From contig CAVTEG010000015.1 of NCBI GenBank assembly GCA_963733815.1, positions 171,910 through 235,909 of the forward strand: a DNA stretch of 64,000 nucleotides, written 5' to 3'. Under the pieces are notes generated by a model. That model saw only the letters and a program-made list of their open reading frames with translations, did no database searches and was not told where the DNA came from. Below are positions 14,351-63,867 of the stretch, one piece after another. The position numbers were made by a program, and so were the translations under genes. How positions within the stretch are numbered: the first letter of the stretch is position 1; every line of letters begins with the position of its first letter. Source of the stretch: an uncultured Acidobacteriota bacterium. GTDB lineage: Bacteria; Acidobacteriota; Thermoanaerobaculia; UBA5066; Gp7-AA6.

Positions 14351-14496
14351 GACTCGGACTCCTGGCGGCCCGCTTCGCGGGCCAACCGACGGGAGGGGAA
14401 GTCGCTCTGGGACTCTCTCCCACGGATTCGACAGGACGTTCTCGCCCCCCCTCGCTGCGCTATGCGGAGAGTCCTCGGGCTGCGAACGGAAGAGGG

Positions 14497-14967: not shown

Positions 14968-14971
14968 CTCT

Positions 14972-16177: not shown

Positions 16178-16377
16178 TGGTCGGCCCTCCTGTTCTCCCC
16201 GGACGGTTCTTGGAGGATTCTAGCGCCCGCTCCGTCCGCGCAGGCCGGGAGCGCGAAGATTTAGGAAATCCTTCATCTTTGGACACCCGTGGCGGACCGT
16301 CACCGGTAGAGCTGAACACTTGTCTGCGAAATCGGAGAGGAATGCGGGTTAGGCCAGCGCCGGGTCCGCCCGGCGCG

Positions 16378-17463: not shown

Positions 17464-17467
17464 GGTT

Positions 17468-44851: not shown

Positions 44852-45958
44852 GTGAGGGCATCCGGAAGCGTTCTGGACGGCCAGGTCCTGGGCCGGCTGG
44901 ATCGCTGGCGGAAGGCACGCGCCGTCTTCGTCCGCCCCGACGGGGTCGAAGCGGAGCGGGCCGTTTCCGCGGCGTTCGGCCGGAACTGGGCGCGTGCCCC
45001 GATGTACGGACGGGCGCGCCGCCTGCTCGTCGAGCGAACCCCCGAACAATTCCTGGAAGAGCTCGAGCGCAAGCTCGGCCCTCTGGCCGACAAGGTTCGC
45101 GTGGCGCCCGAGGACATGCGCCAGACCAAGTGGGACGCGATGAGCCACTTGACGCCCCTTCCTCGCGCGCGCCAGGAAGTGGAGGCGCTCTGGCTCGCCG
45201 ACGAGCTGACCACGGGGGAGTTCTTCGTCGAGTTCCAGCCTCTCTTCGACTTGAAGACCGGGTCGGCCATCGGATACGAGAGCCTTCTGCGCGGCCGGGG
45301 ACGCGACGGGCACACGCGTCCGGCGGCGGAGATTTTTCCGGCCGCGGCGGCCCTGCATCTGGAGCCGACGTTCGAGCGGTTCTCCTGGAGCTGCGTCCTC
45401 GAGGCGGCCGACCGGCTGCCCGACGGCGCGCTGCTGTTCTTGAACGTCAACCCGCGCCTGATCGACCGCTCGGAAAATGCCCTCGCGGGCCTCGGCCAGG
45501 AGGCCGAGCGGCGCGGACTCTCCTTCGCGAGGATCGTCCTCGATTTGGTCGAGGTCGAGACGCTTCCTAACGTCGCCGACCTCGCGCAGGCCCTGCGCGT
45601 GCCGCGCGACCTCGGAGCGGTCATCGCTCTGGACGACGTGACGTCCGGGTACGGCACGCTGCAGATGTGTCACGTGCTCCAGCCCGAGTTCATCAAGGTC
45701 GACGCCGAGGTCACGCGGGGTATCGCCCACGACCCGAGGCGCCGCGCGATCCTGAAGTTTCTCGGAGACCTGTCCAAGGAGTTCTCGTTCCGCCTGGTCG
45801 CAGAGGGCATCGACAACGCCGAGGATCTCGAGGTCTGCGCGGCGGAAGGCGTTGGCGTGGCGCAGGGTTACTTCCTGGCACGCCCGGCCGAAAAGCCCCC
45901 GGAGGCCACGCCGGGAGCTCTCGGCGTGGCTCGAATCCCGGCCCGCGGGCCTTCGCTC
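44852..45958 (+). CDS. EAL-domain protein (putative c-di-GMP phosphodiesterase) with an unknown N-terminal domain; no stop before the next gene
   Basis: The EAL core is present (EFQPLFDL, ESLLR, NVNP, DDVTSGYG, KVD, QGYFLARP). It continues in frame into the Hsp15 ORF. Confidence 0.65.
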
Positions 45959-45961
45959 GGC

Positions 45962-46366
45962 ATGAACGCGGACCCCTCCGGGGGACCGCTCCCGTCCGTT
46001 CGTCTCGACGTCTGGCTCGACGTCGCCTGCGTCTATCCCACTCGGTCGCAGGCCAAGGCTGCGTGCGAAGGCGGGAAGGTCGACGTCAACGGCGAAAGGG
46101 CCAAGCCGCATCGCGAGATCCGCCCCGGCGACCGCATCTCCCTCTCCGGGCGAGAAGGCCGGCGGCGGGAGCTGATCGTCCGGGGTCTGGCCGAGCGCTC
46201 GATTCCGAAGGCCCAAGCGCGAAAGCTCTACGAGGACGTCACGCCCGCGCCGGCCCCGGAAGTCCTCGAAGCACGGCGTCTGGACCGCATACTCACGCCT
46301 CGCGGCGACGCCGGCCGGCCGGACAAGCGGGATCGGAGGGAGCGCATCCGCTTCAAGCGCTCCTGA
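45962..46366 (+). CDS. hslR: Ribosome-associated heat shock protein Hsp15 (S4 RNA-binding domain)
   Basis: RLDVWLDVACVYPTRSQAKAACEGGKVDVNGERAKPHREIRPGDRISL is the S4 fold of HslR. The 134-aa length is typical. Confidence 0.7.
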   Translation: MNADPSGGPLPSVRLDVWLDVACVYPTRSQAKAACEGGKVDVNGERAKPHREIRPGDRISLSGREGRRRELIVRGLAERSIPKAQARKLYEDVTPAPAPEVLEARRLDRILTPRGDAGRPDKRDRRERIRFKRS

Positions 46367-49080: not shown

Positions 49081-50042
49081 GTCGGAGCGGGCGCAGGCTG
49101 ATAGGCCATCTCGCGCAGCAGCGCGATCCGCTTCAGGATCGGTGGATGCGTCGCGAAAAGGTTCGCGAACCAGCCTTCCTTCTGCTCGAGGCTGCCGCCG
49201 CGGGGATCCTCGATGCAGAGGTGCGCCACGCCCTGCTTGATCGAGGGCGTGGGCCCCTTCTCGGCGGCGATCTTCTCGAGGGCCGAGGCGAGGGCGAGCG
49301 GGTTGCGGGTCAGCTCGGCGCCAGAGGCGTCGGCGAGGTACTCGCGCTGCCGCGAGACTGCCATGGCCACCAGCTGTGCCACGAAGGGGGCGAGCAGGAT
49401 CGACACGACCCAGACCACGGCGAAGAGAAGCCCGGCCCCGCCTCCGCCTCCCTTGGTATCGCGGCGCCGGCCCAGACCCCAGCCGAACCCGCGGCGGCCC
49501 CAGTCGGAGAGCAGCAGGATCGCGCCCGCGAGCGCCGCGACGACCGTCATCAGCCGCACATCGAGATTCCGGACATGCGACATCTCGTGCGACACGACCG
49601 CCTGGAGCTCGTCACGGTCGAGCTTTTCGAGAAGCCCGCGGGTGACCGCGATCGACGACTTCTCCGGGCCGGTGCCGGTGGCAAAGGCGTTGGGGTCCGC
49701 GTCCGGGATCACGTAGATCGCCGGCTTGGGCAGCCCGGAGGCGATCGCCATTTCCTCCACGACGTTGTCGAGAACCCGCTGCGGCGGGTCGGAAGGGTCG
49801 AGCGGCGCGGCTCGAGTGGACTCCAGGACCGCCCGGTCGCCGCCGTGGAGGGACCACCAGGCCGACATGCCTCCCACGCAGAGTGCCCCGAGTGTGGCGA
49901 GGGGGAGCCCGGGCGAAAAGCCGCCCGCATAGAGCATTCCGTCGGCGCCGAGACCCAGGAAGACGAGCAGCAGGACGAAGCCGGCGATGAAGAGGCGCGT
50001 GTTGGAGATGTTGCGCTTCTGCTGCTCGTAGAGGTTGGTCAC
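49071..50042 (-). CDS. htpX: M48-family zinc metalloprotease HtpX
   Basis: HEMSHV is in a TM context and the C-terminal motif REYLAD is present. The GTG start overlaps the lemA stop. Confidence 0.8.
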   Translation of the reverse strand: MTNLYEQQKRNISNTRLFIAGFVLLLVFLGLGADGMLYAGGFSPGLPLATLGALCVGGMSAWWSLHGGDRAVLESTRAAPLDPSDPPQRVLDNVVEEMAIASGLPKPAIYVIPDADPNAFATGTGPEKSSIAVTRGLLEKLDRDELQAVVSHEMSHVRNLDVRLMTVVAALAGAILLLSDWGRRGFGWGLGRRRDTKGGGGGAGLLFAVVWVVSILLAPFVAQLVAMAVSRQREYLADASGAELTRNPLALASALEKIAAEKGPTPSIKQGVAHLCIEDPRGGSLEQKEGWFANLFATHPPILKRIALLREMAYQPAPAPTQK

Positions 50043-50629
50043 GCCCCCGGCTGCGGCCGGATGTTCAGGTCCACCTTCGGCACCGCCCTTTCGGCCGCGT
50101 CCTTGATCTCGAAGAGCTCGACGGTCTGGAACTTGAACGTCTGCGCGATGAAACTGTCGGGGAACATCTGCTGCGCCGTGTTGAAGCGCGTCGCAATGTC
50201 GTTGTAGAACTGGCGAGCGAACCCGATGCGGTTCTCGGTCGAGGACAGCTCCTCCATCAACGCGCGGACGCTCTCGTTGGCCTTCAGCTGCGGGTAGTTC
50301 TCGGCCAGGGCGAAGAGCCGCGAGAGAGTCTGGGTCAGCGCGTTTTCCTTCTCGGCGGAGTCGGCGACCCCGCGCGCGGCCACGGCCGAGTTGCGCGCCT
50401 GGATCACCTTCTCGAGCGTGTCCTGCTCGAACTGCATCTCTCCCTTGACCGCCGAGACCAGGTTGGGAATCAGGTCGTGCCGGCGCTTCAGCTGCACGTC
50501 GATCTGCTTCCACGCGTTGGCGACCTGGTTGCGCAGGCCGATCAGGTTGTTGTACCGCCAGATCGCCCACATGGCGCAAAAGACCGCGCCGACCACGAGG
50601 ATCAGCAAACAGCCGCCGATAGCTCCCAT
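50039..50629 (-). CDS. lemA: LemA family protein
   Basis: An N-terminal TM helix is followed by the conserved LemA core (NLIGLRNQV..., ENYPQLKAN). Confidence 0.85.
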   Translation of the reverse strand: MGAIGGCLLILVVGAVFCAMWAIWRYNNLIGLRNQVANAWKQIDVQLKRRHDLIPNLVSAVKGEMQFEQDTLEKVIQARNSAVAARGVADSAEKENALTQTLSRLFALAENYPQLKANESVRALMEELSSTENRIGFARQFYNDIATRFNTAQQMFPDSFIAQTFKFQTVELFEIKDAAERAVPKVDLNIRPQPGA

Positions 50630-50691
50630 CTGTTGCGGGTTCCTCCGTTGAAAGTTACGAAAAACCGGGGAAGAAGTTCAGTGCGTCCGGC

Positions 50692-51816
50692 TCACGCATT
50701 GAGGCCCTGGCGCAGCTCGCGCGCCAGGATCTCGACGGCGGAACGGGTGCCTCCCGTGAGCTTTTCCTTCCAGACCGTCTCGGTCTCGAAGCGGCGGTCG
50801 CCGATCGCCTCCGCCCACGGGCGCAGCGCCGCGTCGAGCTCTCCCGCCGACCAGACGTCGCCGCCCCGCTTGCGGACCATCGCGATGACGTACGGAACGA
50901 TGCGGATGAACGCCCGGAGCGACGTCGAGCTCTTGATCGAGTACTTGCGTCCGGCGAACGCCGCGGGAAAGGCCCGTGCCGCGGCTTTGAAGTAGTTGAG
51001 GAAGAAGCGCCGCGCGTTCTCCCGGAACTCCCGGGCGACGCGGCCCCCCGCCGTATCGACCGCCGCGAAGACGTCGCGCAGCTCGTCGGCGAGCGAGGCC
51101 TGCGTGACCGATCCTTTTCCGATGCCGAGCACCTTGATGGAGCCCTTCAGAGGCGAGCTCTCGTCTTCGTTGAGCGTGCGGATGACGTCGTGGGCCGCCG
51201 CGAGGTTCTCGTCGCGGTAGAGGCGGCGCCCCGCCAGCGAGATCAGGTGCGAGGGATTCAGCTTCGTGTGCTTGCTGTTGATGGTGACGAAGAGCTCGAC
51301 GACCTGGTCCGGCGTGAGGTTGTCGAACACCACGGCGGGGACCTGGAAGTCGCGGAGATTGTGCTTTTCGGCGATCTGGTGGAGCGCGAGGAGCCGGTGC
51401 TGACCGTCCAGGGCGCGGAGGATGCCGGACTCTTCGGGAAGCTTCAACGAGCCGGCGTCGGCGCGTCCCCCGGACGGGGTGAACTCCAGGCGCTTCTCCG
51501 AGACGAGGAGCACGCTGCCCGGGATCGCCGGCAGCGAGCCGGCGTCGGCCTGCTGGAGGTAGTAGGCCACGAGCTCGTCGATCTTCTTCTTGATGATCGG
51601 ACGCTGAAACGCGTGCTCGGACGCCGCGATCTTCTTTTCCAGGAGGTCCCAGTTCACCCGCCCCGCCGGTTTGTGCTTGCCGCGGGTGGTCTCGCTGCCG
51701 GGGCCGAAGGAGAGGACCTCGAAGCCGACCAGGGACTGCAGATCGGCGCCCGAGAGCAGGGCCTCGTAGAAGCGGACGCCGAACTGGTTCAGGCGAAGCG
51801 AGGGAACCGAAATCAT
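50692..51816 (-). CDS. DGQHR-domain protein (DndB-like family), stand-alone
   Basis: The LDGQHRLLAL motif has flanking conservation. The start is MISVPSL. The upstream 54 codons of the track ORF translate the heptamer palindrome and are non-coding. Confidence 0.7.
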   Translation of the reverse strand: MISVPSLRLNQFGVRFYEALLSGADLQSLVGFEVLSFGPGSETTRGKHKPAGRVNWDLLEKKIAASEHAFQRPIIKKKIDELVAYYLQQADAGSLPAIPGSVLLVSEKRLEFTPSGGRADAGSLKLPEESGILRALDGQHRLLALHQIAEKHNLRDFQVPAVVFDNLTPDQVVELFVTINSKHTKLNPSHLISLAGRRLYRDENLAAAHDVIRTLNEDESSPLKGSIKVLGIGKGSVTQASLADELRDVFAAVDTAGGRVAREFRENARRFFLNYFKAAARAFPAAFAGRKYSIKSSTSLRAFIRIVPYVIAMVRKRGGDVWSAGELDAALRPWAEAIGDRRFETETVWKEKLTGGTRSAVEILARELRQGLNA

Positions 51817-51921
51817 GTCCACCTCCTGGCCCGCGGGTGCCCTCCGGACGCGGGTCGCCGGTAGGGCGGCGCAAAGCGTATACCGGCTTTTTGGCGATTG
51901 AGCCCAGGAGATTTCAGCCGC

Positions 51922-51993: not shown

Positions 51994-52340
51994 CCGGTTA
52001 CGGCGGCGAAACGGTCTTCCAGTCCTGCCCGGCCACCATTTGGTCGTAGATCTGGTTCGCGCCCGTCAGGATCCCGGAGAGCTCGGCGGTGAGGATCGCG
52101 GCGAGCTCGGCGAGGGCGTCCGGACGGGCGACCGGAACGGAGCATTCCACCGAGGACTGGCCGAGCGAGGCGAAGAACGGGGAGGGCCGACGGGTCCAGT
52201 CGGAGTCGCTGCGCCGGTGCTTGGTCATCAGGAACGCGGCGAGGCGCCGCTCGTCCCAGGGCTCGGACATGACCCAGCTGAAATTCGCGCGCAGACCTTT
52301 CTGCTCGACGGAGGGCGCGTCGCTGGCCAGCGAGATCGAC

Positions 52341-53135
52341 ATGGAACCTCCGGAAACGATAGCATTCCGGCGTTCGTCCGACACCGTGAAAAGAGTCCTG
52401 TTTTCGGGCCTTCTCCTGCTCGGCCCGGGCTTGCGCCCGGCCGCGGCGCAGGACCGCGTGTACGCGTCTCACCTGATGGTCGACCAGGACGTCGCGGTCG
52501 CGTCGCGGATCTCGGGCGTCATCGCGTCGATCGCCGTGGACCGCGGAGCGGTCGTGACGCAGGGGCAGGAGCTCGCCGCGCTCGATCCTCGCGAGGCCGA
52601 CGCCGACGTGCGCGAGGCGAAGGAAGACATGGAGTTGAAGAAGGCCGAGCACGCCCGGGCGGAGTCGCTGGCCGCGTCCAAGATCACGAGCGCGGCGGAC
52701 CTGGACGAGAAGAAGGCCCAGTACGCCGTGGCCACGGCGCGGTGGGAGAAGGCCAAGACGTTGCGGGACTACACCGTGATCCGGGCGCCCTTCGCCGGTG
52801 TGGTCACCGAGAAGTACGCCCGCATCGGCCAGAAGGTCACCGAGGACAAGCCCGAGCCCTTGTTCAAGATCACGGCGGTCGAGCCCCTGCTCGCCCGGAT
52901 CTATCTGCCCGAGGAAGAGCTGCTCCGCGTCAAAGTCGGGGACCGCGTCGACATCGTCGCCGAGCGATTCCCGGACGTGAAGACGACCGGCGAGGTCCAG
53001 TTCATCAGCCCGACTGTGGACGCCGCGAGCGGGACCTTCCAGGTCGTGGTTCGGGTCAAGCGGGAGCCCGCGCGTACGGTGCTGCGGCCCGGCATCGCGG
53101 TCCAGGTGCGGTTCCCCAAGGCCGCGGCGAAGTAG
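52341..53135 (+). CDS. HlyD-family periplasmic adaptor (membrane fusion protein), short form
   Basis: An N-terminal anchor or signal (LFSGLLLLGPGLRPAAA) is followed by a biotinyl-lipoyl-like segment, a coiled coil and a beta-barrel segment. Confidence 0.7.
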   Translation: MEPPETIAFRRSSDTVKRVLFSGLLLLGPGLRPAAAQDRVYASHLMVDQDVAVASRISGVIASIAVDRGAVVTQGQELAALDPREADADVREAKEDMELKKAEHARAESLAASKITSAADLDEKKAQYAVATARWEKAKTLRDYTVIRAPFAGVVTEKYARIGQKVTEDKPEPLFKITAVEPLLARIYLPEEELLRVKVGDRVDIVAERFPDVKTTGEVQFISPTVDAASGTFQVVVRVKREPARTVLRPGIAVQVRFPKAAAK

Positions 53136-53151
53136 AGAATCGCCGGCAGGC

Positions 53152-53872
53152 CATGCCGCCGACCGCTCCCCGCACCTCCGCCCGTCTCCGGTCGGCCCGC
53201 GACCGTGTGCTCGTGCACGACATCAAGAACATGTCCTTCCGGCTCCGGCTGCTGCTGTCCAATCTCGACGAGCACTGGGAAGACCCCGACTTCCGCCGGA
53301 CCGTCCGCGACCTGCTCGCCTCCTGTGTGGAGCGGCTGGAGGGAATCGCAGGCCGGTTCGTGGAACGCGAGGATGCGGTTCTCATCAAGGTGGCCCTGGA
53401 CGTCAACGATCTGCTGCGCCAGGTCGCCGAGCTCCCGGGCCGCAGGTCGGGCCGAAAAGGCGCGGAGGCGAGTCCCGGCGTTTCCCTGGCACTCGGAGAT
53501 GCGCCTCGAATCTGGGGGGATCCCTACTACCTCGCCGACGCCGTGGCGAGCCTGGTCGACAACGCCTGCGAGGCCGCGGCGCCGGCAGGCCGCGTGCTCA
53601 TGAGGAGCTTTTCCGCCGGCAGCCCGCGCCGACCCCGGGCCGTCATCGAAATCATCGACAATGGAGCCGGGATGACTCCCGAGTTCCTGCGCGATCGGCT
53701 CTTCCAGCCCTTCGAGACAACCAAGCCGCAGGGCGTGGGACTCGGTCTCGCGACCGCCAACCAGATCGCTCGCCTGCATCGCGGGACGATCCGGGTCCTG
53801 AGTCAGCCCGGCGGCGGTACCCTCGTGCGGCTGTCCTTTCCCGGGATCCCGGCCGAGCCGGGCGAGGCCTAG
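53152..53872 (+). CDS. Cytoplasmic sensor histidine kinase (no sensor domain)
   Basis: The H-box is LVHDIKN, and the N/G1/G2 boxes are present (DNACEAA, IIDNGAGM, GVGLGLA). Confidence 0.75.
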
Positions 53873-54145
53873 CAGGTTGCTGAAAGAGGGTGTGGGATGG
53901 CGTTACGAGCGCCACGGGGTCAGATGCAAGGAAGCGCGACGACGGCGATGCCCTTGCATCGTCGAGGAGCGATGACGATGCAGATGGCCCCGCGCCGCCG
54001 TAACCCGAAGGGTGGACGGCAATTTGCCGGCGGCCGCTCAATCGCGATAGAGCACCGAGTCGCAACACTTTGGAACGGGCGCCGGATGCAAATTGCCGGA
54101 CACGACACCCGCATCCATCTTTCAGCGGCCTGCTAGGAGGCGCGC

Positions 54146-55523
54146 GGTGGGCGGTCAGGCCGAAGGCGCGATCGGCCGCATCCTCATCGTCGAGGACGAC
54201 GAGGTTCTCCTCGAGCAGCTGACCTGGGCGTTGAAGGGCAAGTTCGCGGTTTCGTCGGCGCGCGACGCCACGCATGGCAAGGCCCTTTGCGACGCGGAAC
54301 CGGACCTCTTTCTTTTCGACATGCGCCTGCCTCCGTCGCAACAGGTCCAGGAGGGGCTCGAGTTGTTGCGCCACGCGCGCCGGCGCGACCCGGAGGCCAC
54401 GGTCGTCATGATGTCGGGCGAAGGGGAGAGGGGCGACGCCCTGAAGGCGATCGCCCTGGGCGCCTTCGACTTCTTTCAGAAGCCGATCGACACGGCGGAA
54501 CTGCTGGTGATCCTGAACCGCGCTCTCGAGCGCCGGCGTCTGATGTCCGAGAACCGCGAGCTGCGCCGGGCCGTCTCCCAGCCGGCCGTCTCCGAGCGTT
54601 TGATCGGCGAGAGCCCGGCGCTGCGCCGCTTGAACAGCGAGATCGACCGTGTCGCCTCCGGCGACGCGACCGTGCTGCTCCACGGCGAGAGCGGCACCGG
54701 CAAGGATCTGGTGGCCCGGACGATCCACGCGCGCAGCGGACGCCGCGACCGCCCCTTCGTCGCCGTCAACGTGGCGGCGATGCCGGAAACGCTCGTCGAG
54801 GCGGAGCTGTTCGGTCACGAAAAGGGAGCCTTCACCGGAGCCATCGCATCGCGTCCCGGGCGCTTCGAGCTCGCGCACGGCGGCACGCTGTTTCTCGACG
54901 AAATCGGCACGCTCTCGCCGGCGGCCCAGGCGAAGCTGCTCCGCGCCATCGAAAGCCGGGAGGTCGAGAGAGTCGGCGGCCGCCGCGCGATCCCGGTGGA
55001 CTTTCGCCTGATTTCGGCCACCAATGAGGATCTGGAGGCGCGGGTGGGCGCCGGGAGCTTCCGGGAGGACCTGTACTACCGCATCAACACGATCCCGATC
55101 CGGATTCCGCCTCTGCGGGAGCGAGGCGACGACGTCGCGCTGCTGGCGCGGCACTTCCTCGGAGAGCTTCGCGCCAAGCATGGCCGGGGACCCACGCGCC
55201 TCTCGGAGGCGGCCCTGGCGCGCCTCTCGGCGCATCCGTGGAGAGGCAACGTCCGGGAGCTCCAGCACGCGATCGAGACGCTGGTGGTCTTCGCCGAAGG
55301 TGACGAGGTCGTCGAGGAGGATCTGCCGCGGGCCCTCCGGGAGCGCGCCTCGCCAAAGGCCGTCCACGCGTCGACGTCGTTCGCCCAGGCCGTCGAGGAC
55401 TTCGAGCGGCGACTGCTCTCAGACGCGATCGCCGCGGCCGGCGGCGTGAAGGCCGAGGCGGCGCGCAAGCTGGGTCTCGATGCGAATCAGATCAAGTATC
55501 TGTGTCGGAAATACGGGCTCTGA
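54146..55523 (+). CDS. Sigma-54-dependent response regulator (NtrC family)
   Basis: It has a receiver domain, an AAA+ sigma-54 activation domain (GESGTGKD, GAFTGA, ESELFGHEKGAFTGA-like) and a C-terminal Fis-type HTH. The GTG start has an AGGAGG RBS. Confidence 0.9.
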
Positions 55524-55530
55524 TTTATGG

Positions 55531-55568
55531 GTGAAAAACTCAACCGCGGTGAGAAAAGTTTTCACCAA
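55531..55568. promoter_or_regulatory. Candidate enhancer (UAS) palindrome for the NtrC-type regulator
   Basis: GGTGAAAAACT-N17-AGTTTTCACC lies about 90-120 bp upstream of the sigma-54 promoter. Confidence 0.4.
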
Positions 55569-55648
55569 GTCTTAGACTCGCGCCTGCCGCGAATCGTTAA
55601 ATTACTGAAAGCAAGCTATTTGTTTATCGTACCCGGGGCGGGAAAACC

Positions 55649-55664
55649 TGGCGCGAACCTTGCG
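55649..55664 (+). promoter_or_regulatory. Sigma-54 (-24/-12) promoter: TGGCGCGAACCTTGCG
   Basis: It matches YTGGCACGrNNNTTGCW with the GG and GC correctly spaced. It is followed by RBS AGGAGGG and ATG 55697. Confidence 0.6.
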
Positions 55665-55696
55665 CTCTAGTCGTTGGAAAGAGGAGGGAAGAAACA

Positions 55697-56218
55697 ATGG
55701 CGAACGAAGTCAAGATCAAGCTGACGGACGCGCAGAAGGAAAAGATCCGCGAGGCCACGGGCAAGGACATGCCCGAGATCCGCGTGGAGAGCTTCGGAGG
55801 CAACGCCGCGCTGTCTCCGACGACGAAGGTCGTCTCGGCTCGCGCGATGGGCAAGTCGATTGGCGCGCGGGCGACGGGCAAGTCGGTCGGCGCTCGGGCG
55901 ACGGGCAAGTCGATTGGCGCGCGAGCCACGGGCAAGTCGGTCGGCGCTCGGGCGACGGGCAAGTCGATTGGCGCTCGGGCCACGGGCAAGTCGGTCGGTG
56001 CGCGGGCGACGGGCAAGTCGATTGGCGCTCGGGCCACGGGCAAGTCGGTCGGTGCGCGGGCGACGGGCAAGTCGATTGGCGCGCGGGCGACGGGCAAGTC
56101 GATTGGCGCGCGGGCCACAGGCAAGTCGATTGGCGCTCGGGCCACAGGCAAGTCGATTGGCGCTCGGGCGACGGGCAAGTCGATTGGCGCTCGGGCAACG
56201 GGCAAGGCCCAGTTCTAA
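55697..56218 (+). CDS. Leader-plus-tandem-repeat small protein: about 50-aa amphipathic leader followed by 14 units of ARATGKS(I/V)G
   Basis: Translation gives MANEVKIKLTDAQKEKIREATGKDMPEIRVESFGGNAALSPTTKVVS, then 13 full nonapeptide units plus a terminal ARATGKAQF. It has no Cys, no signal peptide, a strong RBS and a sigma-54 promoter. Confidence 0.7.
   Translation: MANEVKIKLTDAQKEKIREATGKDMPEIRVESFGGNAALSPTTKVVSARAMGKSIGARATGKSVGARATGKSIGARATGKSVGARATGKSIGARATGKSVGARATGKSIGARATGKSVGARATGKSIGARATGKSIGARATGKSIGARATGKSIGARATGKSIGARATGKAQF
55838..56215. repeat. 27-bp in-frame tandem repeat (x14; 54-bp higher-order period over the first 8 units)
   Basis: Repeats of the form GCGCGGGCGACGGGCAAGTCGATTGGC. 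The I and V variants alternate at first, then five consecutive I units follow. Confidence 0.8.
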
Positions 56219-56240
56219 GGAACCCGCTTCACTTCGAAAC

Positions 56241-56269
56241 GCCCCGCTCCGGCGGGGCGTTTCTCTTTT
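56241..56269 (+). terminator. Rho-independent terminator (functional in both directions between convergent genes)
   Basis: A GCCCCGC-tccg-GCGGGGC stem is followed by GTTTCTCTTTT. Confidence 0.6.
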
Positions 56270-56273
56270 GCGT

Positions 56274-58463
56274 TCACCACGCCACGGACTGCACCCAACG
56301 CTTGAGCACGCGCCACGCGCGCGCCGCGTAAGAGGCGCGCCTTCCATAGATCTTGGCGTAACCGTGCATTCCGGCGTAGAGGCTGCCGTCCTCGTTGTCA
56401 AAAACGGCGAGGGCCACGAAACGCTCGGGCTGCTCCTGGGGCGCCGAGGGATCCGCATTCGCCGCGGCGGTCTTGGGTTGTGCGAGGGCGGCCGGGGCGA
56501 TCGAGACGATCGTGCCGTGAACGGGCCGCGGATGCCCGAGGAAAAGCGCGGTGACCGGCGCGTTCGGCACGAGATCTTCGAGAAGACGTTCGGAAACGGT
56601 CAGGTCCGCCGCCATCCGCCGGTCCTCGCCGACCTCGGCGAGAAGAGTCCCCGCGGGCACGGAGCGCCCTTCGAGGTCGCGTACGTAGGGAGTCAGCAAG
56701 TGCCCCGTCGAAGGGCTCTTCACCAGCAGGCGCTCCTCGCGGGCACGTCCGTTCTTCAAGGCCGCGTCGAGGGAGACGCCCCGGGTCTCGGATGCGAAGA
56801 CGCGCGCCGGCTCGGCGGCCTGCCGCGCCAGGCTCGCGTCGCGCGTCGCGCGCTCGCGCTCGGAAGTGAGCCGCTTCGTCGCTTCCGACGCGGCCGCGCT
56901 GACGAGCTGGAAGACCGGCTGCCCGGCCGTCACGCGATCCCCCTCCTGGGCGAGCGCGCGCGTCACGACCCCGTCTTCCGGAGCCTCCAGTCGGATCGTC
57001 ACCGTGGGCCGGAGCAGGGCGGGTGAGCGGAGTGTGCGCCGGCTCCAGGGGAGGAAGAACAGCAGGGCGAGCACGGCGGCGCCGGCGAAGAGCGCCGCGC
57101 GGATACGGTGCGACATGAGCAGCTCCTTCTTGTCGAGATAGAAGAGATGGCCCGTGCGCGTGACCAGGCGGACCCGCTTGCGAAAGAGGCGGTACAGCGT
57201 CAGGACCAGGAGCACGATCGCCCAGTTCGGGAAGAAGTGGTGGTAGAGGTTGTAGAGGAGCCCGCCGATGAACCGCATGACGACGCCCACCCACGCCAGC
57301 GCGAGCGAGCCGAAGATCCAGTAGATCCGGCGCTTGCGCCGTGAGACCAGGGGCACCTCGACGGGAAGCCTCAGCACGTATCGCTGGAAGCACGCCCCGA
57401 TGTAGCGGAACGATTCCTCCCGCAGGTCCGGAATTTCGAGCACGCTCGAGAGCGCGTAGTAGCCGTCGATCTTGATGAGCGGGTTGATGTTGAAGAAGAC
57501 CGTCGAAACTCCCGTGAAGAGCATCGTCTTGAACGCGATCTCGTGCACAAGAGTGTCGGGATAGGAGACCACCCACGCGAGCGTGGCCACCGAACACATG
57601 ATGGCCTCGATGTAGATGCCCGCCGTCGTGACCCAGAGCCGGTGCCACTTGTTCGTGAAGAGCACCGAGTCGGTCGTGTCGCAGTAGAACGCCGGCGTGA
57701 AATAGAGGAGCGCCAGGCCTATGTCGTGGACTTCGCCGCCGTAGATTTTGGTGACGTACGCGTGCGAGAACTCGTGGAACAGTCCGATGAAGGTCAGAAT
57801 GCAGAAGAACTGCACGACATCGAGAAGTGGTTTCGACGTCAACGCGTAGAGCTCGATCGTTCCGCTCCAGATCGCCCCCCAGTGCACGAGGATGACCCCG
57901 AAAGCCCAGCCGGCGAAGATCAAAGCCGCCGCCACGACGGGAGGCGTCCAGATCCAGCGCACGTACTTCACGGTCCGGTCCAGGAAGCGGTTGGGGTCGA
58001 GGACGTGGAAGAGCAGGAAGAACGGGTTGAAGCCCTCGGCCTTCTCCTCGGCGGCGCGCTGGCGGGCCGTCTTCGCGTTCGCGAGGAGCTTGAGGTTCCT
58101 CTCGGCCGCGGACTGCGCGATGAGGCCCATCTCGCGGAGCATTTCCGCGTACTCGCGGACGACGGCCATCTCGATCTTCTCGCGTGGGAACATCGCCTGG
58201 TACTCGGCATGGATCTGCGCCAGCGTCCGCGTCCCATCGAACATCTGGCAGAGCCCCCACTCGGGGTCGTCGAAGTTGTAGTACTTCGTGGTCTCCGGGT
58301 TCTTCACGACCCAGTTGATCTCGCCGAGCTGCACGACGCGCCGGATCACCGCGTCCGATCGGATGGCCGGGCGGTCGCTGGCGATGCCGTGACGGGCCGC
58401 GAGGGCCGCCGCGCCTTCTTCCGGGCGCGTGGCGGCGAGCAAACGTCCGGGGCGCGCGCTCAC
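56274..58463 (-). CDS. Tri-domain protein: PqqD-like RRE domain - M50/S2P-like zinc metalloprotease - HlyD-like adaptor
   Basis: The GTG start overlaps the upstream stop (GTGA). The N-terminus IRRVVQLGEINWVVKNPETTKYYNFDDPEWGLCQMFDGTRTLAQIHAEYQ...EYAEMLREMGLI fits the PqqD/RRE profile. The membrane core has HEFSHAY (HExxH) and NPLIKIDGYY (S2P NxxPxxxLDG motif). The C-terminus has a biotinyl-lipoyl-like segment, a coiled coil and a beta-barrel segment. The 384 codons of the track ORF upstream of the GTG overlap the neighbouring gene and are spurious. Confidence 0.75.
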   Translation of the reverse strand: MSARPGRLLAATRPEEGAAALAARHGIASDRPAIRSDAVIRRVVQLGEINWVVKNPETTKYYNFDDPEWGLCQMFDGTRTLAQIHAEYQAMFPREKIEMAVVREYAEMLREMGLIAQSAAERNLKLLANAKTARQRAAEEKAEGFNPFFLLFHVLDPNRFLDRTVKYVRWIWTPPVVAAALIFAGWAFGVILVHWGAIWSGTIELYALTSKPLLDVVQFFCILTFIGLFHEFSHAYVTKIYGGEVHDIGLALLYFTPAFYCDTTDSVLFTNKWHRLWVTTAGIYIEAIMCSVATLAWVVSYPDTLVHEIAFKTMLFTGVSTVFFNINPLIKIDGYYALSSVLEIPDLREESFRYIGACFQRYVLRLPVEVPLVSRRKRRIYWIFGSLALAWVGVVMRFIGGLLYNLYHHFFPNWAIVLLVLTLYRLFRKRVRLVTRTGHLFYLDKKELLMSHRIRAALFAGAAVLALLFFLPWSRRTLRSPALLRPTVTIRLEAPEDGVVTRALAQEGDRVTAGQPVFQLVSAAASEATKRLTSERERATRDASLARQAAEPARVFASETRGVSLDAALKNGRAREERLLVKSPSTGHLLTPYVRDLEGRSVPAGTLLAEVGEDRRMAADLTVSERLLEDLVPNAPVTALFLGHPRPVHGTIVSIAPAALAQPKTAAANADPSAPQEQPERFVALAVFDNEDGSLYAGMHGYAKIYGRRASYAARAWRVLKRWVQSVAW

Positions 58464-60919
58464 GGCAGAAGCGGCCAGATCTTGTTCCAGAGATACCGGA
58501 GAGGCTTCCGGAACAGCGCCGTGATGACGCGCCGCGTGCCGACGGAGACCTTGCCGTTGCCGAGCATGCCGGTCTTCAGCCTCCCGTCGGAATTCGGAAC
58601 GGCCACCTCGGCGATCAAGAAACGCTGGTCGCCTTCCTCGCGGATCCGGGGCGCGACGCGGGCGACTTCTCCACGGAAGAGCGTCCCGGGGTAGGGGTTG
58701 AACTTCAAAGCCGTCTTCTGGCCCGGCCGGACCAGGGCCGCGTCGGCCTCGGGAACGGCGACCTCGGCCGTTACGGTGCGAACGTCGGCGACGACGCAGA
58801 GCTCCGCGCCTCGCGGAAGAAGCTGACCGACCCTCTCCTCGATCCGCGGAGTCACGATGATGCCGGCGGCAGGTGCAGTCAACCGGGTGCGCGACAGGCG
58901 GTCTTCGGCGAGAGCGATGCGCGCGCGGGCCTCGCGCCGGCGCGCCTCGGCGTCGAAAACAGCGCCGGCGTCCGCATTCTGGCGCGACCGCGCAACGTCG
59001 ACGTCCGAAAGCGCCAGCGCCGACTTGGCCTCCGCCAGCGCGGCCTGGTAGCTCTCGTCCTTCAACGTCGCGATGACGTCGCCGGCCTCCACACGGTCGC
59101 CCTCCCGCCGCAGCACGGCGCCGACGACGCCGTCCACCATCGACGTGACGGCGGCGCGGCGGCCCGGGAGGACCCGTGCGGGCCCGGTGATGCGCAGGGG
59201 CCACGGTGCGACGAACAGGATCAGGGCGGCGACGGCCGCGCCGATTGCCCATCGCCGTCGGCGGGACAACGGGATCGCCGAGAGCTTGCGCTGCTTCTCC
59301 AGGAGCGGTTTCCAGAAGCCGGCCAGCGGCACCTGCTGGTAGAGCTGCGCATTGCGGACGGCCACGGTGGCCTGGTTGACCAGGATCGACAGGAGGTCTC
59401 GCGTCTCCTCTTCGAACACCAGCGGCTCCTTGCTCTCGAATCCGAGAGCGCCGAGCTTTCCTTCCTCGTCCTTGAGGAGGACGCCGTAGAACGACCTCAT
59501 GCCCGTTTCCTGGAAGATCGCCCGGAACTTCTCCTCGGTCTCGGGCCGGTCGGCGGTGATCGCGCCGTCCTCGGTCTGCGTCACCGCGGTGTCGGTCCCG
59601 GAGAGGAAGATCCACTGAAGCAGCTCTTCCATCCGCCGGGCCTCGGGGTTTTTCCGGTCCACCTCGGTCGTGCCGGAGAGCGCCCCCAGCCGCAGCTTCC
59701 CCTTCTCCTGGATCGCAATCCCGCAGCTGTCATAGTGGATCAACGCCGAGGTGGCGTTGACGATCGTCTGCATGACCTTGTCGAGATCGAGCGTGGCCGT
59801 GATCTCTCGGGACACGGCCAGGAGCGCGTCGAGCTCCTCGACCTTCTTCTCGGCCTCGTGCTGCCTCGCCGTCCGCAGGGCCCGGACGGCCTGGCGGGCG
59901 ACGTCCTGCAAAAGCTCCTCGTCCTCGGCCGAGAACTCGGGGTGCCGGCCGCGCTTGTTGGCGAGGACGAGCGCTCCGATCGTGATTTCTTCTTCGACGA
60001 GAGGCGCCGCCAGGACCGACTGGATCGGATAGCCGGTGTCCTCCTCCGCCCCCGGGTCCCCGGCGGGAATGCGGTTGCGCCGTACGGACGTCTGATCGGC
60101 GATGACGTCGCCGACGATCGAGGCGCCGACCGCCTCGGGCGCCGGGGTGACGTCGTAGTTCTCGTTGACGGCAGTGGCGGCCAGGTTGACCTCGCCCTTC
60201 GCGCTGTCGAGCACCCAGAGCGACGCCGATTCGGCCGTGACGAAGTCCGCGGCCTTGCGAACGATCAGCGCGGACAGCTCGTCGGTGTCGATCGTCGAGC
60301 CGAACGCCTTCGAGAGGTCGTAGAGGTTGGTCAGCCGCTCGATCGCGTGGAGCATGCCGACGGTCTTGCGCTCGGACCGCAGCGCCCGTCCCAGAGCCGG
60401 CGCCGCCTGCTCGAGGAATCTCTCCAGGCGCGCCAGCGCGTCTTCGGCGTCGGGCATGTGGCTGAAGTAGAGAGCGAGGAGTCCCACCACAAGGCCCTCG
60501 GCGTGGAGCGGCACCGCGAGGCAGGCGCGGAGCGTCGGGGGCAGCCCCCGCACGAAGGGATCGGAGGTTGCCAGCTCTTCTCCGGTCAGGACGATGGCCT
60601 GACGATCGCGGACCAGGTCATGGATGATGCCGGTCTCGCGCGGCGCCGATCGCCTCAGGAGCTTGTCGACTCCCGGGCCGGAACCCGCGATGCAGAGGAA
60701 CAGGGGATGAACGGTGTCGGGAGCCCAGAGCAGCGCGGCCTCGGCACCGGTCATGGTGATGCTCCATCGCGCCGCCCATCCCGACGTCTGCGAGAGGTTC
60801 TCGCAGAGGGCCAGCTCGGCGAGAGCCGAGACCTCGTCTTCGGACCCCGAGACGTGGTGCTCGGACTCGTCGGCCTCTTCGACCGGTTCGTCTTCCGTAT
60901 CTTCGGGCTCGTCCGCCAT
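58460..60919 (-). CDS. Triple-GAF-domain protein fused to a TM segment and a HlyD-like adaptor
   Basis: An acidic N-terminus is followed by three GAF-like modules (about 60-480 aa), a TM helix (WAIGAAVAALILFVAPW) and an MFP-like C-terminus (biotinyl-lipoyl-like segment, coiled coil, beta-barrel). Confidence 0.75.
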   Translation of the reverse strand: MADEPEDTEDEPVEEADESEHHVSGSEDEVSALAELALCENLSQTSGWAARWSITMTGAEAALLWAPDTVHPLFLCIAGSGPGVDKLLRRSAPRETGIIHDLVRDRQAIVLTGEELATSDPFVRGLPPTLRACLAVPLHAEGLVVGLLALYFSHMPDAEDALARLERFLEQAAPALGRALRSERKTVGMLHAIERLTNLYDLSKAFGSTIDTDELSALIVRKAADFVTAESASLWVLDSAKGEVNLAATAVNENYDVTPAPEAVGASIVGDVIADQTSVRRNRIPAGDPGAEEDTGYPIQSVLAAPLVEEEITIGALVLANKRGRHPEFSAEDEELLQDVARQAVRALRTARQHEAEKKVEELDALLAVSREITATLDLDKVMQTIVNATSALIHYDSCGIAIQEKGKLRLGALSGTTEVDRKNPEARRMEELLQWIFLSGTDTAVTQTEDGAITADRPETEEKFRAIFQETGMRSFYGVLLKDEEGKLGALGFESKEPLVFEEETRDLLSILVNQATVAVRNAQLYQQVPLAGFWKPLLEKQRKLSAIPLSRRRRWAIGAAVAALILFVAPWPLRITGPARVLPGRRAAVTSMVDGVVGAVLRREGDRVEAGDVIATLKDESYQAALAEAKSALALSDVDVARSRQNADAGAVFDAEARRREARARIALAEDRLSRTRLTAPAAGIIVTPRIEERVGQLLPRGAELCVVADVRTVTAEVAVPEADAALVRPGQKTALKFNPYPGTLFRGEVARVAPRIREEGDQRFLIAEVAVPNSDGRLKTGMLGNGKVSVGTRRVITALFRKPLRYLWNKIWPLLP

Positions 60920-60971
60920 GCGCCTCCTCGGTGGACACGACTTGGGCCGGGTGCCAGACGGGTCTGACCCC

Positions 60972-61307
60972 TCAGAAGCTGGAGACCGCGGCCTCCATGT
61001 CGTCGTGGATCTCGAACACCGAGTCGAGCTTGGTCATCTGGAGGAGCTTGCGAATCTGGGGGCCGGCGCGGAGGAGCTTGGTCTGGCCCCCTTCCTTCTG
61101 CGACTGCGTCAGCGCCCGCACCAGAGCTCCGAGGCCCGAGCTGTCGAGGAAGCCCACGCCCGAAAGATCCACGAGCAGACGGGTATGGCCCTCCTCCAGC
61201 AGACGCGTGACGGTCTTCTTGAAGGTCGACTCGGCGTCGCCGATGACGAGGTCTCCCGTCACGGTCAGCACCGTTACGGAGCCGTCTTCATGAGTTTGAA
61301 GTTCCAT
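60972..61307 (-). CDS. STAS-domain protein (anti-sigma-factor antagonist SpoIIAA-like)
   Basis: A 111-aa ORF. The LVDLSGVGFLDSSGLGALV motif contains the conserved phosphorylatable Ser region. Confidence 0.8.
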   Translation of the reverse strand: MELQTHEDGSVTVLTVTGDLVIGDAESTFKKTVTRLLEEGHTRLLVDLSGVGFLDSSGLGALVRALTQSQKEGGQTKLLRAGPQIRKLLQMTKLDSVFEIHDDMEAAVSSF

Positions 61308-61404
61308 GGAACCGGGGCATTATGCCAAAAGCCGAAGATGTCGGGGGCCGCAGCGGTTTCGGGGCGAAACCGGCGGTATTGGCCGAGCGCCATATGATCC
61401 CGCC

Positions 61405-62424
61405 ATGCCGACGCTCGATCGACGTTCCCTCTTTTCTCTCGGCGCCGCCTCCTATTTCCACGCCCTGCTGGGCCGCGCCCTCGTGCCCGGCGTTTCGCCA
61501 CAGGGGGTCAAGACCGCGGGCATCCGGATGATCCCGGTCGACGGGAAGTACAAGGTCTGGACGAAGAAGCTCGGGTCGGGAACGATCCAGATGCTGACTC
61601 TGCACGGCGGTCCCGGCATCACGCACGAATACTTCGAGTGCTTCGAGGATTTCCTGCCGCAGGCGGGTGTGGAGTTCTACTACTACGATCAGCTCGGATC
61701 TTTCTACTCCGACCAGCCCGACGATCCGTCGCTCTGGACCATGGATCGATTCCGCGAAGAGGTCGAACAGGTGCGGGCGGCCCTGGGGCTGGAGCACTTC
61801 ATCCTCTATGGGCAGTCGTGGGGCAGCATGCTCGCGATCGAGTACGCCCTCAAGTACCAGAAGCATCTCAAGGGTCTCGTCCTCTCGAGCATGACCGCGT
61901 CGATCCCTTCCTACATGAGCTATGTCGCGAAGCTCCGCGCCGCGTTGCCCGAGGACCTGCTCGCCACGCTCGAGAAGTACGAGGCGGAAGGAAAGTACGA
62001 CGCGCCCGAATACCAGGACGCGATGTACAAGAGCGTCTACCTCCGCCACGTCTGCCGCGTCGATCCCTGGCCGGATCCCGTCGCGCGCGCGTTCAAGCAC
62101 ATCAACAACCAGGTCTACGGTACGATGCAGGGACCCAACGAGTTCGTCGTCACAGGGACCTTCAAGGACTGGGACCGCTGGAAGGACCTTCCGAAGATCA
62201 CGGTGCCGACGCTCCTCATCGGCGCGCGCTACGACGAGATGGATCCCGAAGACATTCGTAAGATGGGCCGTCTCATTCCCAACTCGCGCGTCGTCATCTG
62301 CGACAACGGCAGCCACCTCGCGATGTGGGACGACCAGGAGGCGTACTTCGCCGCTTTGATCCCGTTCCTGCACGAGGTCGAGAAAGGCCGGTTCACCGGC
62401 TCGAAGACTTCGCCGCGCTCGTGA
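61405..62424 (+). CDS. Proline iminopeptidase family alpha/beta hydrolase (S33), Tat-like signal
   Basis: HGGPG, the GQSWGS nucleophile elbow and the catalytic Asp/His regions are present. The N-terminal signal is MPTLDRRSLFSLGAA. Confidence 0.8.
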   Translation: MPTLDRRSLFSLGAASYFHALLGRALVPGVSPQGVKTAGIRMIPVDGKYKVWTKKLGSGTIQMLTLHGGPGITHEYFECFEDFLPQAGVEFYYYDQLGSFYSDQPDDPSLWTMDRFREEVEQVRAALGLEHFILYGQSWGSMLAIEYALKYQKHLKGLVLSSMTASIPSYMSYVAKLRAALPEDLLATLEKYEAEGKYDAPEYQDAMYKSVYLRHVCRVDPWPDPVARAFKHINNQVYGTMQGPNEFVVTGTFKDWDRWKDLPKITVPTLLIGARYDEMDPEDIRKMGRLIPNSRVVICDNGSHLAMWDDQEAYFAALIPFLHEVEKGRFTGSKTSPRS

Positions 62425-63179: not shown

Positions 63180-63441
63180 GGGCTTCTTCAGAAAATCGTT
63201 GGGAGTCCTTTTCCGATGGTTTCCGGCAAATCCGTAAGGGCCCTCACCCCGTACAAGACGAGGAGGCAGGAACCGAGTTCGGGGCGTCCGGAGGCTTGAA
63301 ACCGGGGGAGCGGCTATAAGATCTCGCGATTCAACCGGTCCGGTACGCGAACCGGGTTGGCGAGTCACTCGACGAGGCCATGGCGGTCTCGCCGATTCGT
63401 TGGGGAGCCCCCGCAAAGGGGGCAACGAAAGGAGACCTTGG

Positions 63442-63867
63442 ATGAAGAAGGGTGATCTGACGGTGAAGGCTCTCGGCCTCGCGGTCGCGGGCGTCCTCGC
63501 AGGCTCCGGCCTGATGGCGGCGCTGCCGGCCGGCGGGGTGAAGGGCGACGAGGCGAGGCCGGCTTCGACCGACGCGAAGGCCCAGGACAAGGCGGGCGCG
63601 ACGTCGGACAAGCACGTCTGCAAGGGCCAGAACGCGTGTAAGGGCAAGGGCGGCTGTAAGGCCGGCGACAACGGATGCGCAGGCAAGAACTCTTGCAAGG
63701 GCAAGGGCGGCTGCGCTTCGGCCGACATGAAGCACTCCTGCAAGGGCATGAACTCGTGCAAGGGCCAGGGCGGCTGCAAGAGCGGCGACTCCGGTTGCGC
63801 GGGCAAGAACTCTTGCAAGGGCAAGGGCGGCTGCGCGGTTCCGGTGGCTCCGAAGAAGGCGGCCTAA
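63442..63867 (+). CDS. Secreted 12-Cys repeat peptide (two tandem 6-Cys units), candidate metal-binding or RiPP metallophore precursor-like
   Basis: The signal peptide is MKKGDLTVKALGLAVAGVLAGSGLMAA. The core contains two copies of xCKGxNxCKGxGGCKxGDxGCAGKNSCKGKGGCA. A good RBS AAAGGAGA is present. Confidence 0.65.
   Translation: MKKGDLTVKALGLAVAGVLAGSGLMAALPAGGVKGDEARPASTDAKAQDKAGATSDKHVCKGQNACKGKGGCKAGDNGCAGKNSCKGKGGCASADMKHSCKGMNSCKGQGGCKSGDSGCAGKNSCKGKGGCAVPVAPKKAA

Follow-up and report, generated by a model that had tools for sequence, protein, structure and literature searches.

In type I secretion, the cytoplasmic domain of the adaptor HlyD senses the substrate and triggers the recruitment of TolC. 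Site-2 proteases classically act in signalling, as exemplified by RseP and SpoIVFB. According to the paper on daptides, site-2 proteases fused to an RRE occur together with precursors that carry the motif ELExMEAP, whose Pro residue occupies position -1, and the protease MpaP removes the leader. Here we describe a locus that combines a relative of these leader peptidases with three adaptor-type domains, one of them fused to a triple-GAF array. It lies in a 64,000-nucleotide stretch of contig CAVTEG010000015.1 (the whole stretch is called the window) from an uncultured member of the Acidobacteriota, a phylum that counts among the most abundant in soil and whose genetics is poorly characterised.

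The seven genes listed below, three on the minus strand and four on the plus strand, apparently make up a conserved module of Acidobacteriota without earlier description. We consider it somewhat probable that they encode an apparatus for the leader-dependent maturation and probable export of a substrate, of which the GAF-HlyD and STAS proteins would be cytoplasm-facing regulatory subunits.

60972-61307, minus strand: STAS protein, anti-sigma-antagonist-like, 111 amino acids (aa), with a DSSGLG phospho-serine motif (Pfam STAS, E 3.5e-20)
58460-60919, minus strand: GAF-HlyD, a fusion of three GAF domains, one transmembrane (TM) helix and a periplasmic adaptor (HlyD/MFP), 819 aa (open reading frame (ORF), hidden Markov models (HMMs), hydropathy, structure model)
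56274-58463, minus strand: protease-HlyD, a fusion of an RRE(PqqD)-like domain, a site-2-type intramembrane metalloprotease (HEFSH, NxxPxxxxDG) and a C-terminal HlyD adaptor, 729 aa
55697-56218, plus strand: substrate (precursor) gene, 173 aa, with a leader of about 45 aa, MANEVKIKLTDAQKEKIREATGKDMPEIRVESFGGNAALSP, followed by GARATGKS(I/V) repeats (conservation, ribosome-binding site)
54147-55523, plus strand: sigma-54-dependent response regulator, PrsR-like (REC, AAA+ with GAFTGA, HTH_8; Sigma54_activat, E 8e-69)
53153-53872, plus strand: sensorless histidine kinase core (DHp and CA only), 239 aa, PrsK-like (TIGR02916, E 8.5e-38)
52386-53135, plus strand: sHlyD, a small secreted HlyD/MFP protein with an N-terminal signal-like segment, 249 aa (TIGR01730, 153 bits against a cutoff of 94.9)

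Each part comes from a known family, and the module lacks the defining features of the known systems that we tested for, among them daptide clusters and PrsK/PrsR. No description of this arrangement was found in the searchable literature on HlyD, GAF, STAS, site-2 proteases, RRE domains, Acidobacteria, sigma-54 and tandem repeats, where the relevant paper was the daptide one, on the RRE-fused site-2 protease, and the term 'GAF domain' was not found in the adaptor-protein papers that the search listed. The novelty lies in the arrangement, a variation on leader-dependent peptide or protein maturation and export; that it amounts to a new type of secretion system is a minority chance. No Rfam family matched within positions 52000-62000.

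Gene neighbourhood and the GAF-HlyD fusion

A genome scan yielded at least 501 related loci, of which the best 80 were inspected, with the seven proteins of the window mapped onto them by tblastn; because these best 80 were kept, the taxonomic spread is under-sampled. The order STAS > GAF-HlyD > protease-HlyD < precursor < response regulator < histidine kinase < sHlyD is found in every locus of the Thermoanaerobaculia with enough flanking sequence (about 60). The loci of Blastocatellia and Terriglobales (33-39% identity) have the order GAF-HlyD > sHlyD > protease-HlyD < small gene < sigma-54 regulator, with a STAS gene that is nearby but relocated. An unclassified soil-metagenome contig (L085) carries the same gene set with a two-GAF form of the fusion, two leader peptides of 56-57 aa and a HAMP kinase. 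In a metagenome-assembled genome (MAG) of Planctomycetota (L083), GAF-HlyD is convergent with protease-HlyD, a 1491-aa protein and sHlyD, and a Crp-type cyclic nucleotide (cNMP) regulator gene, divergent from GAF-HlyD, replaces the sigma-54 system.

GAF-HlyD itself can be divided into the following parts.

60842-60919, minus strand: acidic disordered N-terminal tail, aa 1-26 (predicted local distance difference test score (pLDDT) below 50 for residues 1-24)
60449-60841, minus strand: GAF1, aa ~27-157 (Pfam GAF_2, 36 bits; fold)
59930-60304, minus strand: GAF2, aa ~206-330, with an NK..F...DE motif (Pfam GAF, 50 bits; phmmer matches to the PDE2A GAF domain)
59411-59794, minus strand: GAF3, aa ~376-503, followed by the conserved helix ATVAVRNAQLY, aa 504-530 (Pfam GAF, 36 bits)
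59204-59269, minus strand: single TM helix, aa ~551-572, with basic residues on its N-terminal side (hydropathy; model)
58463-59203, minus strand: periplasmic adaptor part (HlyD_D23, E 8e-22; model; matches to MacA, MexA and AcrA)

A preliminary description of this DNA, made from its letters, had proposed three GAF domains joined by one TM helix to an HlyD adaptor, and HMMs, hydropathy, an AlphaFold2 model and Foldseek agree on this architecture for positions 58460-60919. Scanned separately, the three GAF segments reach 34, 50 and 36 bits, all above the gathering score of 22.4 (Pfam PF01590/PF13185). Hydropathy identifies one TM segment, at about residues 556-579 and preceded by RRRR, which corresponds to a single helix with its N-terminus inside. 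The C-terminal 250 residues match HlyD_D23 and also TIGR01730 RND_mfp (111 bits against a cutoff of 94.9). Neither of the two objections that had been envisaged, GAF calls unsupported by HMMs and homologues encoded by unlinked genes, applies, because the HMMs support the GAF domains and synteny is conserved.

The AlphaFold2 model, a monomer like all our structure models, was built with 58 orthologues and has a mean pLDDT of 81.5. In it, long helices (158-205, 331-375 and 504-529) connect three GAF folds, and a TM helix spans residues 551-570. The part after the TM helix begins with a barrel-sandwich (lipoyl-like) domain and a hairpin whose two helices each have 26 residues; a beta-barrel follows, and an amphipathic helix forms the C-terminus. 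The membrane-proximal domain of adaptors is absent. With Foldseek, the C-terminal part retrieves MacA, MexA and AcrA, and the N-terminal part retrieves the tandem GAF domains of PDE2A, CyaB2, PDE5 and PDE6.

The helices between the GAF domains and the one after GAF3 are the most conserved segments of GAF-HlyD in alignments of both close and distant relatives. In the conserved helices, the majority residue has a frequency of 0.90-0.93 among close relatives; among distant ones, the second linker and the helix after GAF3 reach 0.58-0.63. Residues R522, N523 and Y527 do not vary in either group. This pattern fits a predicted signal-transmitting spine, as in the GAF tandems of phosphodiesterases and cyclases. 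GAF1 is the least conserved of the three domains and is dispensable in two-GAF forms. The NKFDE-type motif of GAF2 (N321-K322...F329...D333-E334) is invariant or nearly so in 58 orthologues. Gating of GAF-HlyD by a ligand, which had been proposed from the presence of the GAF modules, appears plausible, and beside it can be set this motif, the conserved inter-GAF helices and the Crp-type cNMP regulator that flanks the Planctomycetota homologue. As for the unusual acidic N-terminus pointed out earlier, it is indeed present: the stretch DEPEDTEDEPVEEADESE (residues 3-20) is predicted to be disordered, and the composition of the tail is kept in the 58 orthologues (median length 21.5 residues, net charge -8) and lost in distant relatives.

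Homologues of GAF-HlyD are numerous. More than 120 full-length proteins are 66-95% identical to it, all from Thermoanaerobaculia or Acidobacteriota where the source is named, and an exhaustive search with clustering at 50% identity gave 456 clusters at E<1e-30, among them proteins of about 800 aa at 31-41% identity and two-GAF forms of about 640 aa. The fusion also occurs in a MAG of Candidatus Dependentiae (P0203, 807 aa), and a four-GAF form of 1019 aa exists (listed with P0203 and P0191). A 1144-aa protein (P0270) that looked like a fusion of GAF-HlyD with the protease is a frameshifted read-through and not a Rosetta-stone fusion.

It could be argued that the HlyD proteins of the module are ordinary adaptors whose pump (ABC, RND or MFS) and TolC-like channel have their genes elsewhere, and that the GAF domains gate this pump. 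The TIGR01730 scores above cutoff and the structural matches to MacA, MexA and AcrA are in line with this idea, and outer-membrane factors unlinked to their partners are indeed commonplace; no TolC-like factor is annotated in the loci examined. We nevertheless regard it as highly unlikely. The neighbourhood is conserved without a pump gene across 85 loci: no ABC, RND or MFS transporter is present in the gene tables of five loci, and an ABC ATPase lies within the flanks of one of the 85. The gene coupled to GAF-HlyD by overlapping stop and start codons (GTGA, the GTG start belonging to protease-HlyD) encodes a protease rather than a pump, and the domain missing from the model is the one that contacts RND and ABC pumps. 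In the preliminary description, the adaptor had been placed in an export machinery; the periplasmic adaptor stands, and its attribution to such a machinery needs revision in view of the lack of an ABC, RND or MFS pump in the module.

The STAS gene had been noticed ahead of the fusion, and it is found directly upstream in every Thermoanaerobaculia locus in which the upstream flank is present. Among the distant loci, 13 of 22 have a STAS gene within 8 kb of GAF-HlyD. The protein scores above the cutoff of the anti-sigma antagonist family TIGR00377 (73.5 bits against 53.45), it ends in a conserved ..AVxSF motif (..AVSSF in the window), and the Ser residue aligned with S58 of SpoIIAA is present in 69/69 sequences. 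In five Terriglobales loci (L070, L072, L073, L074 and L081), a 145-aa kinase of the RsbW/SpoIIAB family (HATPase_c_2, E 2e-29) is encoded directly after STAS, and a SpoIIE phosphatase gene is located 3 kb from the Planctomycetota locus. No such kinase was found in the window or in the 8-kb flanks of the Thermoanaerobaculia loci. The start codon of STAS (61307) abuts the longest ORF of a divergent proline iminopeptidase gene (TIGR01250, 344 bits; window 61306-61420). The true start of the latter is probably near 61405, which would leave a control region of about 100 nt shared with STAS.

The protease-HlyD fusion and its predicted substrate gene

The polytopic core of protease-HlyD carries both zinc-ligand motifs that define site-2 (M50-type) proteases, HExxH and NxxPxxxxDG, and residues H230, E231, H234 and N325-G334 are invariant in 58 sequences, although the Pfam M50 match is below threshold (21.6 against 27.2). 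The protein aligns to the family NF041824, daptide_HExxH, over nearly its full length (E 8.4e-49) with 166.7 bits, below the equivalog cutoff of 300; distant homologues match it with E values of 1.6e-53 and 4e-54. In the model, the N-terminal domain has a three-strand, three-helix topology, with strands at 39-65 followed by helices at 66-111. Its similarity to PqqD and RRE domains is weak but consistent (Pfam PqqD, E 0.005; TIGR03859, E 0.006-0.011), and a profile search of the Protein Data Bank (PDB) returned two matches at E<=10, both to PqqD structures (E 0.19 and 1.2). The C-terminal domain has an MFP fold, with hairpin helices of the same length as those of GAF-HlyD. Adaptor matches fill the Foldseek list for this model, which makes it uninformative for the RRE and M50 parts.

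Convergent with protease-HlyD lies the precursor gene, with the following elements in and around it.

55649-55663, plus strand: sigma-54 -24/-12 promoter element TGGCGCGAACCTTGC (TGG-N8-TTGC), 48 nt upstream of the precursor ATG
55838-56206, plus strand: tandem DNA repeat, 27-nt unit (9 aa), 13.7 copies, 87% matches
56236-56263, plus strand: strong hairpin terminator with a 12-bp stem, between the convergent precursor and protease genes

The precursor matches no Pfam or NCBIfam family, its homologues are annotated as 'hypothetical', and its exact sequence is absent from a collection of 15 billion proteins. Across 51 loci, the divergence of the leader at the three codon positions is 0.17, 0.20 and 0.39, so that third positions diverge about twice as much as the first two, a pattern indicating that the leader is under purifying selection. 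A ribosome-binding site precedes the gene in 51/51 loci. The motif TGG-N8-TTGC is found upstream of it in 52 of 55 loci, at a median distance of 47 nt from the start, where shuffled sequences lead one to expect 0.1; a stricter sigma-54 pattern matched 2 of the 55. The same motif is found upstream of none of 70 STAS genes and of one of 48 sHlyD operons. Both hallmarks of a sigma-54-dependent gene are present, a promoter element and an adjacent gene for an enhancer-binding protein with GAFTGA. These sequence features identify the precursor as a real gene and a predicted target of sigma-54.

The adjacent two-component genes form an operon with sHlyD, which comes first and is preceded by a sigma-70-like promoter at 52336-52365. 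Both proteins fall below the cutoffs of their best families. The response regulator scores 445.8 bits against the 502.6 required for TIGR02915 (PrsR), and the kinase, which has an orthologue in the related locus L001, scores 130.4 bits against 300 for TIGR02916 (PrsK), within profile positions 482-679 alone, and has neither sensor nor TM segment. Residues 302-370 of GAF-HlyD weakly match positions 412-479 of PrsK (E 0.0057). That the GAF domains of GAF-HlyD might be the missing sensor of the kinase, as in a split PrsK, is speculation.

Between the stop codon of the kinase and the start of the response regulator lies an insert of about 290 bp (53858-54147); the corresponding genes of L001 share 4 nt. 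Inverted repeats of 46 nt, 72% complementary to each other, bound the insert, and the core CCTAGCAGGYYGCTGAAAGA is present on both arms (0 expected by chance). In its layout the insert resembles a miniature inverted-repeat element; it has no Rfam match and no second copy within the window.

Behind the conserved leader, the precursors differ. While six of the module's proteins are 45-95% identical across loci, the repeat units are unrelated between genomes (SARAAGKAI, KAPLKANM, KGLSK, AKPL, SGKPGL, EEGLR, ADLANS, SIESADT, GDQESLRA), are basic, acidic or neutral depending on the genome, and vary in copy number between close relatives. Near-identical leaders can precede sharply different numbers of repeats, with 4 units in P0121 and 13.7 in the window. 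In several long-read MAGs (L007, L033, L050, L053 and L055), the repeat ORF runs into out-of-frame sequence, which probably reflects assembly or frameshift errors within the tandem repeats. The Terriglobales substrate genes between protease-HlyD and the sigma-54 regulator (L066, L070, L072-L074, L079, L081 and L082) encode another conserved leader, MAIQKKSLI..., followed by repeats such as VAATR, GPSKFVT, ELGKRV and KIAPKVAP.

In two loci (L061 and L062), the leader-core junction motif ends every repeat unit (EEARKAP, EERSNP), which suggests that precursors of this clade might be cleaved repeatedly. Junctions are also discernible in distant loci, as in the peptides of L085 (...LEDRVAP/SVIRGGM...) and in the Planctomycetota protein (...KKLEDRIAP/AMMGGM...). 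The latter, encoded at 13564-18039 on the minus strand of L083 between the protease-HlyD and sHlyD genes and 115 nt from the protease gene, is an acidic, Cys-rich repeat protein of 1491 aa whose short leader ends in KKLEDRIAP. Neither Pfam nor NCBIfam has a match for it, and it lacks a Sec-type hydrophobic signal. A substrate of this kind argues for an extracytoplasmic destination reached by a dedicated route, as far as can be judged from its sequence.

The variability of the repeats raises the question of whether the locus is a pheromone or bacteriocin factory, in which the repeats would be cut into many species-specific short peptides and exported as autoinducers or antimicrobials. Hypervariable cores behind a conserved leader, the junction motif reiterated in each unit of L061 and L062, and the cationic character of many repeats would be expected of such a system. 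In ComCDE and Agr-type loops, a two-component system is encoded beside the precursor gene, and here too an adjacent two-component system would drive the precursor promoter. However, no component of the module co-varies with the repeats, the kinase has no extracytoplasmic sensor, and no immunity gene is found. Moreover, some repeats are acidic or neutral and one substrate has 1491 aa. We therefore hold this possibility to be quite unlikely; as regards the role of the product, it is a special case of leader-dependent maturation and export.

Proposed maturation and export, and possible signalling

Under the reading that we favour, maturation and export, the leader would be bound by the RRE-like domain at the cytoplasmic side of the membrane and cut off by the intramembrane metalloprotease, in the way that MpaP removes daptide leaders. 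In some clades, the protease may also cut the junction-like motifs that recur in each repeat unit. The three adaptor-type periplasmic domains would co-assemble into a periplasmic conduit for the product. Their hairpin helices, modelled for the two fusions and estimated from sequence for sHlyD, match in length, at about 26 residues. The GAF array, most likely a dimer with a signalling-helix spine, would sense a small ligand or the substrate load and, together with the phosphorylatable STAS protein, might gate the apparatus or else report its state to the sensorless kinase. Such reporting would create a feedback loop on the sigma-54-dependent transcription of the substrate gene. The steps that we infer are thus leader binding, the cleavage site or sites, hetero-oligomerisation, export, ligand gating and partner switching.

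Several points weigh against this scheme. Its main weakness is that the module encodes no inner-membrane transporter, ATPase or outer-membrane factor; with no motor gene in the module, export would have to proceed without an identified motor, and site-2 proteases are, to our knowledge, not translocases. The predicted RRE assignment rests on sub-threshold matches and modelled topology, and the ligand of the GAF domains cannot be deduced from sequence. At the leader-core junction, the precursor of the window has GGNAALSP where most relatives have GxNPA. Multi-site cleavage would not be general, since many repeat types lack the junction motif, and it is not evident in the clade of the window. Partner switching, as suggested in the preliminary description, is backed indirectly by the Ser residue conserved in all 69 STAS sequences and by the RsbW-type kinases adjoining STAS in five Terriglobales loci, but a scan of 27 window ORFs (about half of the total) with Pfam or NCBIfam yielded neither an RsbW-type kinase nor a PP2C phosphatase. 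Lastly, all the related loci come from MAGs or metagenomes.

The lack of a transporter gene, together with a kinase devoid of a sensor, would be accommodated by trans-envelope signalling. The site-2 protease would then subject the precursor to regulated proteolysis within or next to the membrane, and the cytoplasmic signal would be either its conserved 45-aa N-terminal piece or the loss of the repeat tail; the HlyD domains would serve as periplasmic sensors or scaffolds, and the GAF and STAS parts would feed the sensorless kinase. This would agree with the classical role of site-2 proteases, with the conservation of the N-terminal domain of the precursor but not of its repeats, and with the helices being the most conserved part of GAF-HlyD. 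It is at odds with the Planctomycetota substrate, whose 1491 aa, Cys residues and acidic repeats are typical of extracytoplasmic proteins, and with the presence of three adaptor-type proteins whose hairpins of similar length suggest a conduit. In addition, the closest characterised relative of the protease is the leader peptidase of a secreted peptide. On this evidence, we find signalling unlikely.

A bolder version of export would be a new envelope-spanning secretion system, in which the leader peptidase-adaptor, the GAF-sensor adaptor and the soluble adaptor would form an ABC-independent conduit gated by the GAF domains and phospho-STAS. We see this as unlikely but not negligibly so. If true, the system would handle Sec-independent, leader-bearing substrates of very different sizes: peptides of 56 aa, tandem-repeat polypeptides and a protein of 1491 aa.

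Known parts, namely a leader peptidase, adaptors, GAF sensors, a STAS switch and sigma-54 control, are joined here without the usual motor, in a module that is highly conserved in one class of Acidobacteriota and is found again in other classes and in two or more further phyla, Planctomycetota among them. The question raised is how a leader-bearing protein crosses the envelope. In GAF-HlyD, a periplasmic adaptor is directly joined to sensory domains, and the substrate family may be a large unexplored pool of secreted low-complexity peptides.

The window contains further genes of note. At 49071-51822 on the minus strand are genes for an M48 peptidase, a LemA protein and a DGQHR/DndB-like protein (TIGR03187, 118 bits). 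They are conserved neighbours in L001 and L002 and probably lie outside the module, because they are absent from the gene tables of the distant loci L083 and L085. At 63400-63867 on the plus strand is a gene for a secreted, Cys-rich repeat protein of 155 aa with CKG.N.CKGKGGC units, which matches the BufA2 bufferin-type metallophore model with E 1.1e-13 (51 bits against a cutoff of 60). At a similar position, L001 has a 141-aa gene without Pfam match, followed by MbnB/TglH/ChrH-type and HvfC_N genes. From this match and these neighbours, a bufferin-type RiPP (ribosomally synthesised and post-translationally modified peptide) locus probably continues past the end of the window. The gene at 44852-46366 on the plus strand encodes an EAL domain fused to an S4 RNA-binding domain, and L001 has adjacent S4 and EAL genes similarly placed. 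Finally, a Ser/Thr protein kinase fused to a universal stress protein domain is encoded at 31497-32909 on the minus strand.

Comparison with known systems

The adaptors of the module resemble MacA, MexA and AcrA by their barrel-sandwich, alpha-hairpin and beta-barrel domains (Foldseek E 1e-13 to 1e-16) and by TIGR01730 scores above cutoff. Unlike these proteins, they have a short hairpin and no membrane-proximal domain, they are fused to sensory or protease modules, and they have no cognate pump. A co-encoded ABC, RND or MFS transporter, which characterises tripartite pumps and type I systems, is missing. As in type I secretion and bacteriocin exporters (HlyB-HlyD-TolC; peptidase-ABC), the substrate is predicted to be Sec-independent and to have a cleavable N-terminal leader, the protease is coupled to an adaptor, and a TM-anchored adaptor has a cytoplasmic N-terminal domain. 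However, the module has no ABC transporter or ATPase, the place of a C39 cysteine peptidase is taken by a site-2 metalloprotease, three different proteins of the adaptor type are present, and the cytoplasmic domain consists of about 550 aa of GAF domains.

Regarding the regulatory parts, GAF-HlyD shares with PDE2A, PDE5, PDE6 and CyaB2 the GAF-helix-GAF organisation with long connecting helices, and its GAF2 carries an NK..F...DE motif. It differs from them in having three GAF domains and an output that is a TM helix and a periplasmic adaptor, not a catalytic domain. The STAS protein has the fold and the DSSGLG phospho-serine motif of SpoIIAA and RsbV, with an RsbW-type kinase adjoining in five related loci, and it also weakly matches MlaB, a transporter STAS subunit. 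In contrast to SpoIIAA and RsbV, it is co-transcribed with membrane machinery, and the locus has no sigma/anti-sigma pair. Among NCBIfam families, PrsK and PrsR of PEP-CTERM/exosortase systems match the kinase core and the response regulator best, and in both systems the genes under control encode low-complexity secreted proteins, secretion being probable in the module; yet neither protein reaches its equivalog cutoff, the membrane and GAF parts of PrsK are missing from the kinase, and the module includes neither an exosortase nor a PEP-CTERM signal.

As for the daptide leader peptidase, protease-HlyD departs from it by scoring below the equivalog cutoff and by carrying a C-terminal periplasmic HlyD adaptor. 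The module has no modification enzymes, its precursors are not Thr-terminal, and its substrates are tandem-repeat proteins or, in a single locus, a 1491-aa protein, in diderm Acidobacteriota and Planctomycetota. The likeness lies in the NF041824 match, the HExxH and NxxPxxxxDG motifs and the PqqD-like N-terminal domain of protease-HlyD, and in the LEDRxAP junctions of the distant substrates, which resemble ELExMEAP with the Pro residue at position -1.

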